A DNA stretch of 64,000 nucleotides from positions 44 through 64,043 of IMG/VR virus record IMGVR_UViG_3300048035_000179; one strand, written 5' to 3'. The stretch comes from a virus (Duplodnaviria > Caudoviricetes). Positions 2,640-56,017 of the stretch are shown here, piece after piece. A program made the position numbers and the translations under genes. The first letter of the stretch is position 1, and every line of letters starts with the position of its first letter. The notes below the pieces were generated by a model that was given only the letters and a program-made list of their open reading frames with translations, was not told the DNA's origin and searched no databases.

Positions 2640-4351
2640 CAAACTATTTATCAAAACTACAAGCACTTGGCATCGATGTCAAGAATGGCACAGGCACTGA
2701 ACCTCAAAAAACTAAGTGTCCAAAATGTTCTCACACTAGAAAAAAGAACAAAAACGAAAAATGTCTTAGGGTATGGGTAGAGACAGGAACTTATTACTGC
2801 CATCATTGTGGTGACAATGGTTCTGTTGCAGAGTATGAAACCGAATATGAATTACCAACTGTAAAAGCATCTCCTTTATCTCCTAAAATATTAAAATTTT
2901 TCAAGGATAGAGGTATAAATGAAAGCACAATAGAATACTTTGGTGTTACGGAGGGTGTAGAGTATATGCCACAAGTACAAAGTGAAAGACCTGTAATACA
3001 GTTTAATTACATTAGAAAGGGTAGGAGAATTAACATAAAATTTAGAGACTCTCAAAAGAATTTTAAACTAAACAAAGGTTCAGAAATGATCATGTATGGT
3101 TTAGATTTAATTAATCCTGCAACTTGGTGTATTATAACAGAAGGTGAGTTTGATGCAATGGCTTTTTACGAGGCAGGATTGCAAGAAAATAGACTTATGT
3201 TTGCTTGTTCTGTACCAAATGGCGCATCTACAGGAAATCAAAATCTCACATACTTAGATAATAGTATCGATGAGTTTGAAAATAAAGACAAAATATATTT
3301 AGCATTAGATAATGATGCACCAGGAATAAAACTAAGAGACGAGTTGTCAAGGCGACTAGGTAAGGATAGAGTTTGGTTAGTAAACTTTCCCGATGGATGT
3401 AAAGATGCCAATGATGTTTTACTCAAACATGGGTCGTTTGAATTAATTAAGTGTATAGACTCTGCAAAACCCTTTCCTTTGGAGGGGGTGAGTAAAGCAT
3501 CTGACTCTCGTAAAGAAATACATAATCTTTATAATCATGGAATGCCAAAGGGTGATGAGATTGGTTATAAAGAGTTTGACCAACTTATGTCATGGAGACC
3601 AAGTGAATTTACACTAGTTACAGGAGTTCCTGGTCATGGTAAGTCGTCTTTCGTTGATCAAGTTATAGTAGAGTTAGCGAGACAAGGATGGAAGTTTGGA
3701 ATATTTTCAGCAGAAAAACAACCAATAAAAGTACATGTTGCAGAATTGATAGAAAAATATACAGGTAAAAGATTTGGTAAAGGTTCAGTAGATAATTTGC
3801 AACCACACGAATTAGACCCTGCAATAGACTTTGTAAACAAACATTTCTTCTTCATAAATCTTAAGGATAATGATTTAACAGTAGAAGGTATATTGAATAA
3901 AGGAAAAGAGTTAGTTAAAAAAATGGGAATAAACTGCTTAATTATTGACAATTGGGCGTTTGTAGAGCATAAGATAGAGAGAGGAATGAATGAACATCAA
4001 TATACAGGACTTCAACTATCTAAAATAAAAATATTTAAAGAGGCTTATGACTGCGGTGTAATACTTGTTGCTCACCCTCAAAAATTAAAAAAAGAGAATG
4101 GGAAGGTAGAGGTCGCTTCAGGTTACAGCGTAAGTGGCTCTTCCCACTTCTTTAATAAAGTAGATAATGGAATTACTGTATACCGAGATTTTGAAAGAGA
4201 ACTTGTCGAGGTGCATGTTTGGAAGGTTCGATGGAGGTTCACAGGAAAAACAGGTATGCAGGAATTCAAATATAATTTAAATACTACTTGTTACACTGAA
4301 TATGAAGAAACAACACATAACGGTCAATATGCGAAATTCCAAGGACAATAA
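2636..4351 (+). CDS. T7 gp4/Twinkle-like primase-helicase
   Basis: Zn finger CPKC...CHHC, TOPRIM ITEGEFDA and DNDAPG, KDAND, Walker A GVPGHGKSS, Walker B LIIDN, and VAHP. Confidence 0.95.
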   Translation: MTNYLSKLQALGIDVKNGTGTEPQKTKCPKCSHTRKKNKNEKCLRVWVETGTYYCHHCGDNGSVAEYETEYELPTVKASPLSPKILKFFKDRGINESTIEYFGVTEGVEYMPQVQSERPVIQFNYIRKGRRINIKFRDSQKNFKLNKGSEMIMYGLDLINPATWCIITEGEFDAMAFYEAGLQENRLMFACSVPNGASTGNQNLTYLDNSIDEFENKDKIYLALDNDAPGIKLRDELSRRLGKDRVWLVNFPDGCKDANDVLLKHGSFELIKCIDSAKPFPLEGVSKASDSRKEIHNLYNHGMPKGDEIGYKEFDQLMSWRPSEFTLVTGVPGHGKSSFVDQVIVELARQGWKFGIFSAEKQPIKVHVAELIEKYTGKRFGKGSVDNLQPHELDPAIDFVNKHFFFINLKDNDLTVEGILNKGKELVKKMGINCLIIDNWAFVEHKIERGMNEHQYTGLQLSKIKIFKEAYDCGVILVAHPQKLKKENGKVEVASGYSVSGSSHFFNKVDNGITVYRDFERELVEVHVWKVRWRFTGKTGMQEFKYNLNTTCYTEYEETTHNGQYAKFQGQ

Positions 4352-4628
4352 ACAAAAACTATATAAGGTTGTGTGGGGTAGAAACAAATGGGGTACGTCT
4401 ATAGGAAAGCAGAAAGTATTTGAAAGTGGAGACTTTTTAAGACCTGCGATGCTTGATGAGGTTGTGCCTGATAAAGAAGAGTACTTTATAAGACCTAATG
4501 GAACAGGTGATTGTTATTATCTGCTTTATAAAGGTTTTGATAAGAGTGTTAAATATGATGATATAAAAACATTTGTAGAGCACAAAATGGTTTATGTCTA
4601 TAAAGATTTTAATGTATATGGGAAATAA
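4302..4628 (+). CDS. Hypothetical protein
   Basis: ORF within the operon. Start uncertain. Confidence 0.55.
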   Translation: MKKQHITVNMRNSKDNKQKLYKVVWGRNKWGTSIGKQKVFESGDFLRPAMLDEVVPDKEEYFIRPNGTGDCYYLLYKGFDKSVKYDDIKTFVEHKMVYVYKDFNVYGK

Positions 4629-5583: not shown

Positions 5584-5906
5584 TGGATACTAGAGAGAAA
5601 ATTGAGAGGGTTGGTGCTGAAATCATCAGCCTTCTCATCTCTAAAAACGCTGATTATGGTGATAGTGCTACATCTCCAATAAGTGTTTTTGGTGACGGAG
5701 ATCCAATAAAATCTTTATGTGCCAGAATAGATGATAAAATATCTAGGATAAAACAAAAGGGTATTTATGACAAGACAGAAGATACTGTTAAAGATCTTAC
5801 AGGTTATTTAATTTTGTTACTTATAGCATTACGAGATCAAGAAGAAAATAAGGATGATGAAAAAACACCATCTAGGTATTTCACAAACAATAGTTGGGGG
5901 ATTTAG
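5583..5906 (+). CDS. DUF1599 / nucleotide-modification-associated domain 1 protein
   Basis: KNADYGDS, RIDDKISRI and EDTVKDLTGY motifs. Confidence 0.8.
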   Translation: MDTREKIERVGAEIISLLISKNADYGDSATSPISVFGDGDPIKSLCARIDDKISRIKQKGIYDKTEDTVKDLTGYLILLLIALRDQEENKDDEKTPSRYFTNNSWGI

Positions 5907-16761: not shown

Positions 16762-17367
16762 TTATCCGTTTCCAAAGAAACCTGTGTTACCTGCTGCAAT
16801 ACCTGATTTTTGCATATTCATAAGACCTTGACCTGTTTGCTGTAACCCACCAAAAGTCATCTGTCTTGAGGCTGCATTATTAGCCATAGTCATCTGAACC
16901 TTTTGATTAAATGGATCTAACTCATTTAATTTAAAAGCCTGATCTTTTGCTTGTGCAAGATTTACTAATGATTGAGATAATTTTGCTTCTCTTTTATCAC
17001 GCTCTGCTGCGCCAGACATTCTATTCTTAATTAAGGCATCTTGCATTGATGCATCTGCTGAAACACCAACTGCTAACATATCTTCTAGAGAACCTGATCC
17101 CCTTGAAACATTAGCCAACTGATTTTGTTTATTAGTGAACAACGCATTTTTCATATCTTGCTGATCATCAAGCCTACCGTCAATCCTTGTTCTTGCACGC
17201 TCCATGTCTTGTGATATTTCTTTAGGAATTTGATACGTTGGTCTCTCTGCTAAAAGGCGTTCAATTTCTCTTTGACGCTTCTTTTTTCCAAAAATACCTG
17301 AAGCCATTTGTGCTAATCCACCTACCGCTTGCATTCCTGCTCCAACTAAACCTGCTGTTAATGCCAT
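16762..17367 (-). CDS. Putative pilot/ejection protein
   Basis: Gly/Ala-rich hydrophobic N-terminus followed by coiled coil, typical of podovirus ejection proteins. Confidence 0.65.
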   Translation of the reverse strand: MALTAGLVGAGMQAVGGLAQMASGIFGKKKRQREIERLLAERPTYQIPKEISQDMERARTRIDGRLDDQQDMKNALFTNKQNQLANVSRGSGSLEDMLAVGVSADASMQDALIKNRMSGAAERDKREAKLSQSLVNLAQAKDQAFKLNELDPFNQKVQMTMANNAASRQMTFGGLQQTGQGLMNMQKSGIAAGNTGFFGNG

Positions 17368-54396: not shown

Positions 54397-54527
54397 CGAA
54401 ACCAAAGTCGAACTTTTTTAAAACTATATAGTCTTATATAGAATGTTCTTCCCTCTATAGATATTTAACAATCGTTCAAGGTCACCCCAAACTAAAATCA
54501 TTCTGTATGACATTTTTATGCACATAT

Positions 54528-54558
54528 TTTGTGGATAACTAAATTTGTTGTATATTGC
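54528..54558 (+). promoter_or_regulatory. Early promoter (Bacteroidota sigma-A type)
   Basis: TTTG (54528) N19 TATATTGC (54551), plus a perfect TAAATTTG at 54540-54547. Confidence 0.6.
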
Positions 54559-54630
54559 CAACTGAACGAGCGTTCATAACGACATATCGAACGCTAACAA
54601 ACTGAAAATCAATTATTTAAACTAAAAATT

Positions 54631-54903
54631 ATGATGCTTAACAAAATTAACCTTTCCACAATTGATGACAATACGCTTGACCAAGCGATGAATATTTTTG
54701 ATTGTATTCCTTTTACTATTCTAGACCATTACTCAAAGAAATTTAATATAGGTACACTTGATTTATGTGTAGATGTTTTATTATCTAATAAAGAATGGCA
54801 TTTGAGACTTTCACACCCTATGACATATACAACTCTTGAAGATATAATTCACGACTTTATTGGTTTAGCAAATAGAGACGAACACTTTGTTCCTAGGATT
54901 TAA
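54631..54903 (+). CDS. Early hypothetical protein
   Basis: A-rich leader. C-terminal HDFIGL.N.D.HFVPR. Confidence 0.65.
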   Translation: MMLNKINLSTIDDNTLDQAMNIFDCIPFTILDHYSKKFNIGTLDLCVDVLLSNKEWHLRLSHPMTYTTLEDIIHDFIGLANRDEHFVPRI

Positions 54904-54953
54904 GGCTAACTGATGAGGATTTAATATCCGAAACGCTGTGAAGCGTCTTAGTC
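54904..54953 (+). ncRNA. Hammerhead ribozyme, type I
   Basis: Stem I GGCTAA/TTAGTC; core CTGATGA; stem II GGAT-TTAAT-ATCC; GAAA; stem III ACGCT-GTGA-AGCGT; GUC cleavage triplet (cut after C54947). Entirely intergenic. Confidence 0.92.
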
Positions 54954-54957
54954 AATA

Positions 54958-55926
54958 ATGACAAATAATTTAAACTATTACACTATGTATGTAAACTCAA
55001 ATGGTCAATTAACAGACATTCACGCTGACCACGTGAATCCAACTCAAGCACAACAACTACTTCACAAATTCAATTTAGATTGGGAGGTAAAAAAATTCCC
55101 TCTTCAGTTTGAGACTCCATCTTCATTTAGCGATGACTCTAGACTTAACCAAAAGCACGATAGTGGTTTTTATGGTGTTGTAAGAACAGACAACAACGAT
55201 TGCTTTGGAGCATTCACAGACCAATACGAAACTTTTCAGAACTCTGAACTTGCTGAACTTGTGTTAGAAATTGCTGATGCTATTGGTCAACCTATCTCAA
55301 ATGGTGCAGAATTCAAAGGTGGTAGAAAAGTGATGTTGCAAGTTGATTTGAATCCCGTTAAAATTGGTGACGATACAATCACTAGAAAAGCAACTGCTAT
55401 CAATTCTCACGATGGCTCTACTTCATTACGATGGGGAACAACGGGAACAACTATTTCTTGTGCAAATCAATTCAGTGCAATCAGCAAAGAATTAGAGAAC
55501 TCTGTACGTCACACACGTAATATGCGAGATGCTATCTCTAGGTCTCTACGTATTCTTGAGAATATGGAAAAAGCAGATAAGTCTTTATTTGAGATATTCT
55601 CTTCTATGACTGATTACAAGGTCACCCAAAAACAAGTGAACGAGACAATCAATTTAATTACTGGTGTTGATGTCAATATGGGTGAAACCAAAGCACGTGA
55701 GCAGTATTCTACTAGAAAGTTAAATCAGACTCAAGACTTGGTGCAATCTATCGTTAAAGAGATGTCTTACAAGGGCGATACACTATGGGGATTGTTTAGT
55801 GGTGTAACACACTACACAACTCACAAAGGTGGCTCAGATAGAACTAGAGAAGAATCCAAGTATGTTGGAGGTCTTCAGAGACTCGACCAAAAGGTCTTCA
55901 ACAAGTTTGCAACTTTAGTATCATAA
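54958..55926 (+). CDS. DUF932 family phage/plasmid protein (start may be ATG 54985)
   Basis: LDWEV.K.PL, VRTD, Y...QN.E, GGRKV, NSHDGS.S, CANQ and TLWGLF.GVT.YTTH motifs. Confidence 0.9.
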   Translation: MTNNLNYYTMYVNSNGQLTDIHADHVNPTQAQQLLHKFNLDWEVKKFPLQFETPSSFSDDSRLNQKHDSGFYGVVRTDNNDCFGAFTDQYETFQNSELAELVLEIADAIGQPISNGAEFKGGRKVMLQVDLNPVKIGDDTITRKATAINSHDGSTSLRWGTTGTTISCANQFSAISKELENSVRHTRNMRDAISRSLRILENMEKADKSLFEIFSSMTDYKVTQKQVNETINLITGVDVNMGETKAREQYSTRKLNQTQDLVQSIVKEMSYKGDTLWGLFSGVTHYTTHKGGSDRTREESKYVGGLQRLDQKVFNKFATLVS

Positions 55927-55938
55927 GCAAACTAACCA

Positions 55939-55996
55939 ATCGCTAATGCCTTGCACAGAAATGTGCGAGGTTTTGGTGGTAAAGGGCAATAATGCC
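55939..55996 (+). ncRNA. Structured intergenic RNA (long GNRA-capped hairpin plus a small hairpin)
   Basis: ATCGCTAA-T-GCCTTGCACA-GAAA-TGTGCGAGGT-T-TTGGTGGT forms 18 bp with 5 G-U pairs, followed by GGCA-ATAA-TGCC. Confidence 0.55.
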
Positions 55997-56017
55997 ATAT
56001 CATTTAAACTATATAAT

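Follow-up and report, generated by a model that had tools for sequence, protein, structure and literature searches.

A type I hammerhead ribozyme with predicted self-cleavage between a small gene and the DUF932 gene of a phage genome from IMG/VR

Introduction

What is the role of a complete hammerhead ribozyme that stands between two co-directional genes of a phage? The question is raised by a stretch of 64,000 nucleotides (further referred to as the window) from the IMG/VR virus record IMGVR_UViG_3300048035_000179. A first-pass annotation, made from the letters of the window, placed a type I hammerhead between the stop codon of a small gene and a DUF932 gene, and proposed that the phage cuts its first early transcript there and releases a DUF932 mRNA with a 5'-OH end.

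Clustered hammerheads of prophages cleave in vitro, according to the sections of Perreault et al. 2011 (PLoS Comput Biol, PMC3088659) that deal with them, where it is also proposed that long phage transcripts are cut into mRNAs of single-gene or operon length. Type I hammerheads are described in the 5' UTRs of fungal and plant RNA viruses in parts of Lopez-Galiano et al. 2026 (NAR, PMC13725137). The roles of self-cleaving ribozymes in bacteria are called 'largely elusive' in a passage of a 2019 review (PMC6765202).

Materials and methods

Hammerheads were accepted on the presence of three helices and of standard core-adjacent pairs, as quoted from a passage of Perreault et al. 2011 (PMC3088659). 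Our own descriptor required CUGANGA, GAAA and UH with stems of at least 4, 3 and 3 pairs, and was applied to all three topologies and both strands. Among the Rfam models, the gathering score of Hammerhead_1 (RF00163), 34 bits, is a curated cut-off that corresponds to no biochemical feature. Because the Rfam hammerhead models gave no match in the window, we built a covariance model, R1, from 105 distinct IMG/VR sequences, with the window left out. Further members were searched for by an exact pattern based on the window sequence, CUAA + CUGAUGAG ... CGAAAC ... GUCUUAG. The surroundings of the ribozyme were surveyed at 125 family sites with distinct context among the matches listed.

Relatives of the locus were collected by a search with the DUF932 protein, which recovered 13 IMG/VR loci, 11 of them with upstream sequence; they are designated from L001 on. 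A search for RNA data gave 11 runs, 10 of them recorded as RNA, each with at most 0.10 of the sampled words; four of the 11 were compared with the window.

Results

The record contains 64,043 bases, is complete by the CheckV estimate and has about 33% G+C. Between about 6.9 and 48 kb, genes for structural proteins (portal, large terminase, tail fibre and very large proteins) occupy the minus strand. A plus-strand block extends from about 53.6 kb to the end and on into 1–4.3 kb, and encodes the DUF932 protein, an Api92-like domain protein, an integrase, a RecE-like exonuclease and a primase/helicase. Among cultured phages, Flavobacterium phages of the genus Elemovirus match the large terminase best (31.5% amino-acid identity), followed by Cellulophaga and crAss-like phages. 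These matches indicate a Bacteroidota host, in agreement with AU-rich leaders without Shine-Dalgarno motifs. The virus is a tailed phage of about 64 kb, with marine Bacteroidota as its probable hosts, and carries the ribozyme in its plus-strand early or replication block. A blastn search with 54400–56000 against cultured phages gave no match.

The hammerhead occupies 54904–54953 on the plus strand, which is the coding strand of both its neighbours: an upstream ORF of 90 aa without a Pfam family (54631–54903) and the DUF932 gene of 313 aa plus stop (54985–55926; Pfam PF06067, E 4.1e-20). It starts directly 3' of the TAA of the upstream ORF (54901–54903), and the codons following in the same frame are GGC UAA, the UAA being that of stem I. 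Stem I (54904–54909 with 54948–54953, GGCUAA/UUAGUC, 6 pairs) is open. Stem II (54917–54920 with 54926–54929, GGAU/AUCC, 4 pairs, loop UUAAU) and stem III (54933–54937 with 54942–54946, loop GUGA, 5 pairs comprising CGCU/AGCG and the closing pair A54933–U54946) are closed, as in the type I topology. With CUGAUGA at 54910–54916, GAAA at 54930–54933, and U54946 and C54947, all positions of the hammerhead core are present (C3–A9, G12–A14, A15.1–U16.1, C17), and the core-adjacent pairs G10.1–C11.1, A15.1–U16.1 and U1.1–A2.1 are all standard. The ribozyme has no ligand-binding extension.

According to the hammerhead consensus, self-cleavage is predicted between 54947 and 54948, after C17 (C54947) of the GUC triplet. 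Hammerhead cleavage leaves a 2',3'-cyclic phosphate, here on the side of C54947, and a 5'-OH, here on the side of U54948. The elements that the first-pass annotation had listed for this site are correct in every detail, and the cut that it placed after C54947 stands as a predicted position. Judged by its sequence, 54904–54953 is a genuine complete type I hammerhead, the cleavage itself being a prediction.

At its energy minimum the 50-mer folds exactly into the three-stem hammerhead (−11.5 kcal/mol), with an unremarkable energy (z −1.56; 18 of 200 shuffles are equally stable). Within a context of 111 nt, stem I is replaced by other pairings in the minimum-energy fold, and the centroid structure retains only stems II and III. 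Stem I is short, AU-rich and weak, and competes with other folds.

The predicted cut lies 10 nt before ATG 54958 and 37 nt before ATG 54985. Both distances had been given correctly by the first-pass annotation, which left two options for the start of DUF932. Only the second option is supported by relatives: ATG 54985 (MYVN...) is kept as the start in 10 of 10 aligned rows, and the ORF of L001, the closest relative, opens at the equivalent ATG. ATG 54958 lies inside a small hairpin and is not a conserved start among the relatives. On this conservation, the true start of DUF932 is ATG 54985, not 54958.

The resulting leader (54948–54984, plus strand) is 37 nt long, AU-rich and devoid of a Shine-Dalgarno motif. 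Its hairpin GUCA-AUAA-UGAC (54951–54962, plus strand) shares bases of its 5' arm with the 3' strand of stem I and, once cleavage had occurred, would sit 3 nt from the new 5' end. The hairpin is weak (−2.9 kcal/mol, not better than shuffles). A hairpin is found at this place in 8 of 10 aligned rows (none in L011 and L009), in several of them as GGCAAUAWUGCC. The leader motif AAUAAUUUAAACUAU at 54964–54978 has a second copy at 54611–54625, before ORF 54631. Throughout the window, the motif AATAATTTAAACTAT with up to 3 mismatches has 29 matches against 18.6 expected, a number reached in 3 of 100 shuffles, which is not significant. The leader was also considered as a sigma-70 promoter and rejected by eye, given that in relatives the −10-like hexamer directly adjoins the start codon.

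Two promoter-like regions were noted further upstream. A strong sigma-70-like match (ATGACA, 17 nt, TATAAT, 11 of 12 positions) occurs on the plus strand at 54820–54848, inside the upstream ORF and some 55 nt upstream of the ribozyme. It may be a chance match: the scanned region has 24 promoter-like sites where 16.6 would be expected. The other is a promoter-like AT-rich stretch followed by a small hairpin UGAAC...GUUCA, observed at 54540–54630 of the window (plus strand), at L001:440–525 and at about 2940–2975 of L009 and L010. In the window and in L001 it comes ahead of the first small ORF, and in L009 and L010 it stands directly before DUF932. This combination may mark a transcript start. 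With such a region, read by eye, and a 5' hairpin before ORF 54631, the ribozyme would separate the first and second genes of the transcript. The status of a 'first early transcript', which depends on this reading, is only plausible.

The Rfam hammerhead models, which the first-pass annotation had suggested as a check, do not report 54904–54953. At gathering scores, the window has no match to any Rfam family. At E ≤ 10, the region 54850–55010 yields no hammerhead, only five C/D-box snoRNA matches at noise level, and RF00163 has no match in the whole record. The window ribozyme has the same core and three-helix junction as RF00163 and Hammerhead_3 (RF00008). The descriptor finds a single site in the 64-kb window on both strands, namely 54904–54953, with a mean of 0.05 matches in 100 shuffled windows (five contained a match, never more than one). 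R1 matches 54902–54955 with 68.9 bits (E 9.6e-16), and the second best of the 19 matches listed for the window scores 13.4 bits (E 0.48). Hence the window holds exactly one hammerhead. The formation of circular RNA from paired hammerheads is inapplicable to a window with a single ribozyme.

The exact pattern occurs in at least 119 IMG/VR stretches; the matches listed comprise 146 sites with 96 distinct sequences. Among 185,579 prokaryotic species with one genome each, it was found in only four stretches, from two Daejeonella, one uncultured Bacteroidetes MAG and one Thermodesulfobacteriota MAG. The hammerhead sub-family with the stem I core CUAA/UUAG is thus almost confined to viral contigs.

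Covariation was estimated on 105 sequences without the window. Paired cells make up 97.9% of 1680, compared to 27.5–37.7% when the partners are slid, and all nine pairs left free by the search pattern change on both sides (403 cells). None of 500 shuffles reaches the observed covariation score. The 105 to 125 sequences of the family are mutually related, so these counts and those given below do not represent independent events. As read from this covariation, selection clearly acts on the RNA structure of the family. The most common loop II is UUAAU (22 of 105), which the window has along with the most common flanks. The class of loop II is associated with the distal part of stem I and the flank (AG.../C-A in 82 of 83 five-nucleotide loops; an outer A-U pair and a UA flank in seven of the eight GUAA loops). 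The association would suit a tertiary contact of loop II with distal stem I, a contact on which fast hammerhead cleavage at physiological Mg2+ depends, but shared ancestry could produce the pattern as well.

The gene arrangement around the 125 surveyed sites is regular. At 119 of them an ORF of at least 40 aa starts within 150 nt, with a median distance from cut to start of 29 nt (quartiles 26.5–36) and a Shine-Dalgarno-like motif in 96 of the 119 cases. At 117 sites a frame that is open for at least 40 codons lies upstream and ends between −60 and +15 of the ribozyme. At 91 of these sites its stop falls within the ribozyme or overlaps it: 27 stops are a UAG that shares its G with the first position of stem I, 47 are the stem I UAA, and 17 are formed by the first UGA of the core. 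At six of the 117 sites the stop ends on the base before the ribozyme, the arrangement of the window being alike. Upstream genes end in the two frames closed by the ribozyme itself at 110 of the 117 sites (hand count).

The general descriptor, applied to 119 loci (1.08 Mb) among the matches listed, found 261 hammerheads: 245 of type I, 10 of type III and six of type II. At least two hammerheads occur in 64 of the 119 loci, on the same strand and with a median spacing of 512 nt. R1 at E ≤ 0.001 gives 210 matches in 100 of these loci. The 111 complete downstream ORFs mostly belong to no Pfam family; DUF932 is the most common assignment (5), followed by Kyano_Gp96 (4) and DNA_pol_A (3), with single matches to ArdC-N, SprT-like and others. 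One of the DUF932 proteins encoded downstream of a family ribozyme is only 24% identical to that of the window.

A member of the family is present in a cultured phage, Flavobacterium phage vB_FspP_elemoC_14-1A (MT497067.1, Elemovirus). Its hammerhead, on the minus strand at 16950–17010 of MT497067.1, scores 52.9 bits with R1 (E 8.4e-12), is located between small co-directional genes and, like that of the window, is of type I with the loops UUAAU (II) and GUGA (III). It differs from the window in stem I (GGCAAA/UUUGUC) and in the downstream gene, which encodes an 84-aa hypothetical protein instead of DUF932. The only annotation covering this hammerhead (L151:2467–2574) is an opposite-strand CDS for a hypothetical protein of 35 aa, probably a spurious gene call. 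Partial matches, covering 46–52% of the query in the region of the core and stem II, were also seen in AP013542.1, MT375528.1, MT375530.1 and MW452941.1, i.e. an uncultured Mediterranean phage, two Pelagibacter phages and a Methylophilales phage. These four records may add further members of the family from cultured marine phages.

L001, whose DUF932 protein is 93% identical to that of the window, carries this type I ribozyme in the equivalent position. Its stem II is GACC/GGUC against GGAU/AUCC in the window and its stem III is CCUC/GAGG against CGCU/AGCG; as both stems differ and still pair, both are fully compensatory. The first-pass annotation had named covariation upstream of DUF932 homologs as a check, and loss of the core and stems in related phages as evidence against its reading. 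L001 keeps the ribozyme with compensatory stems, and a family of more than 100 viral sequences covaries at all free pairs. The alignable homology between L001 and the window begins at the first base of the hammerhead, and the upstream ORF of the window is unrelated to the ORF upstream of the L001 ribozyme. The L001 copies score 21.6 bits with RF00163, below its gathering score. With both the window hammerhead and these copies below the Rfam thresholds, standard annotation misses the family.

In the region L001:777–1048 we observed two identical hammerhead copies 223 nt apart, each with a near-identical leader and an ATG behind it. A 47-aa ORF that is absent from the window starts at the first ATG and stops at the UAA in stem I of the second ribozyme; DUF932 starts at the second ATG. 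The 47-aa ORF bracketed in this way looks like an insertion or duplication of a cassette at the ribozyme.

Other relatives have a different element at the same junction. In L003 and L011 it is a type III hammerhead, with 47.8 and 48.1 bits for RF00008 (E about 1e-11; gathering score 48.5), i.e. within 0.7 bits of the gathering score, in contrast to the window ribozyme, which no Rfam hammerhead model reports. In L002, L004 and L008 it is a long hairpin of very high stability (z −5.5 to −6.3) that is accompanied by a U-run; the sequence upstream in L005–L007 is the same as in L004. A scan of the L004-type hairpin for another ribozyme class in Rfam at E ≤ 10 gave only noise. The hairpin could be a terminator or an RNase III-type site. 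Its coordinates are L004:2948–2990, L002:2942–2978 and L008:22–63, and compensatory changes were noted between L004 and L008.

L003 contains four hammerheads within 3 kb (2917–2967, 3949–4000, 4488–4547 and 5784–5858), one of type III and three of type I. Its DUF932 gene is flanked by hammerheads on both sides, one of type I following directly after the DUF932 stop. One of the type I hammerheads has CUGACGA and a bulged stem II (R1 21.3 bits, E 0.0042).

The Rfam gathering scan of the loci of eight relatives returned no hammerhead, only five tRNAs. These are located near DUF932 at L003:1905–1978, L004:5013–5086, L009:4751–4824, L010:4735–4808 and L011:4795–4868, and share the anticodon loop CUUCUAA, in which the anticodon UCU (Arg) is read by eye. 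No tRNA is found in the window at the Rfam gathering score.

The four RNA runs compared with the window provide assembled contigs of relatives, mostly less than 95% alike, and the ends of such contigs cannot show RNA ends. One contig of 196 nt, from a relative, spans 54903–54948. Two contigs begin 17 or 26 nt before 54984, their ends being those of assemblies and thus uninformative on RNA ends. A contig of 3574 nt has 527 other letters in place of 54468–54984. Repeats of ribozyme and leader in relatives would break assemblies in any case.

Discussion

We consider it probable, with good though not full confidence, that the element at 54904–54953 is a catalytically competent type I hammerhead acting in intercistronic self-processing before DUF932; competence is predicted here from the intact core, stems and covariation. 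In the polycistronic RNA, the ribozyme would fold just past the stop of the 90-aa ORF and cut itself co-transcriptionally after C54947. The cut would leave the folded ribozyme as the last part of the upstream message, closed by a 2',3'-cyclic phosphate. The DUF932 message would start with a 5'-OH and UUA, followed by the small hairpin, the rest of the 37-nt AU-rich leader and AUG 54985. As the self-cut would give two separate messages, the element would serve as punctuation between cistrons that is independent of the host, and the neighbouring genes would be uncoupled in stability and translation. Release of a 5'-OH DUF932 mRNA, as suggested by the first-pass annotation, is what we infer from the position at gene boundaries throughout the family, and it matches the proposal outlined in parts of Perreault et al. 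2011.

The junctions of relatives bear on what exactly is selected. The other topology or the long hairpin at the same junction, together with the fixed short distance from cut to start, would indicate message separation as the selected function, and not one motif. A wider reading may tentatively be offered, to which we assign well under even chances: the junction before DUF932 would be a slot for interchangeable punctuation, in which the ribozyme supplies the upstream stop and couples termination with self-cleavage, and ribozyme plus leader moves as an expression cassette for small early genes. If true, such a slot would be natural evidence that the cut or the RNA end matters, not the motif.

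Alternatively, ribozyme and leader could primarily be a portable boundary of gene cassettes, at which small genes are exchanged or inserted by recombination, RNA cleavage being secondary. The homology of the window and L001, starting exactly at the first base of the hammerhead after unrelated upstream ORFs, is what such exchange would leave, as are the two identical copies of ribozyme plus leader that bracket an ORF missing from the window. So is the repeated occurrence of DUF932 as the most common recognisable downstream family (5 of 111), with one homologue only 24% identical to that of the window. We nevertheless regard cleavage as a secondary property as unlikely. The core stays intact and the stems change by compensatory pairs while the sequences diverge, which DNA homology alone would not demand, and the type III topology at the same junction in L003 and L011 argues for function over sequence identity. 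The two readings are compatible, and exchange of cassettes does not exclude self-processing.

A second alternative retains cleavage and makes it conditional: the core would stay covered by a ribosome standing at a stop within or next to stem I until that ribosome is released, or ion conditions would tune the reaction. The position of the stops in the family suggests it (in or overlapping the ribozyme at 91 of 117 sites, in the two ribozyme-closed frames at 110 of 117 by hand count), as do the TAA abutting stem I in the window and the weakness of stem I with its competing folds. Regulated cleavage of phage hammerheads is also raised in a passage of Perreault et al. 2011 (PMC3088659). Compact phage genomes, however, favour overlapping signals without any regulation, the ribozyme has no ligand-binding extension, and the frame bias may partly reflect the shared ancestry of the sequences; conditional cleavage therefore appears quite improbable.

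A chance match or a decayed relic without activity would suit the silence of the Rfam models, the unexceptional folding energy and the choice of the site by a scan over very many windows, and is strongly disfavoured, to the point of being scarcely credible, by the E value of 9.6e-16 from an independent model, the mean of 0.05 descriptor matches in shuffled windows, the intact core, the syntenic L001 copy with compensatory stems, and the loop II and flanks that are the most common ones in the family.

Intercistronic self-processing has parallels in known systems. In phage T7, sites for RNase III, a host enzyme, located between early genes cut the polycistronic RNA and leave a hairpin next to the cut. 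RiboJ is an engineered insulator that cuts off a variable 5' region to give a defined mRNA end with a hairpin beside the cut. The window ribozyme would likewise define an mRNA end, whereas T7 needs a host enzyme and RiboJ is synthetic. The comparison with T7 extends to L002, L004 and L008, which have a long hairpin where the window has the ribozyme.

As in the prophages treated in sections of Perreault et al. 2011 (PMC3088659), hammerheads with a consensus core are found here between co-directional phage genes. The differences concern number, neighbours and distribution. The prophage cases in those sections often have several hammerheads per operon flanking single genes; the window has one in 64 kb and its relatives several (two in L001, four in L003), so the gene-flanking arrangement of the relatives does not apply to the window. 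The anti-restriction gene ardA is directly downstream in some of the cases described there, and here an ArdC N-terminal domain is found in one of 111 downstream ORFs. The examples in those sections come mainly from bacterial genomes near integrases, whereas the CUAA/UUAG sub-family counts at least 119 IMG/VR stretches against four of 185,579 prokaryote genomes. DUF932 is not mentioned in the main text of that paper.

The RNA viruses described in parts of Lopez-Galiano et al. 2026 (PMC13725137) similarly have a type I hammerhead just 5' of a viral ORF, and self-cleavage affects translation downstream. They are eukaryotic viruses with cap-independent translation, in contrast to a DNA phage with bacterial translation. 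Our literature search found nothing that joins a hammerhead with DUF932, although the supplements of papers such as Perreault et al. 2011 may already list members of the family, and nothing on a hammerhead ribozyme in a Flavobacterium phage. The 12-nt string of stem I and core, in RNA or DNA letters, was found only in unrelated papers.

The window hammerhead adds no new kind of element, as phage hammerheads have been known since 2011. What is added is a picture at the level of the family and a cultured system for testing it. The sub-family is large, is almost confined to viral contigs and escapes the Rfam thresholds. Its regular architecture, in which the upstream stop falls inside or next to the ribozyme and about 29 nt separate the cut from the following start, leads to testable hypotheses on the separation of cistrons and its coupling to translation. 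A member of the family is available in culture, in the system of Flavobacterium sp. BAL314 with its Elemovirus phages.
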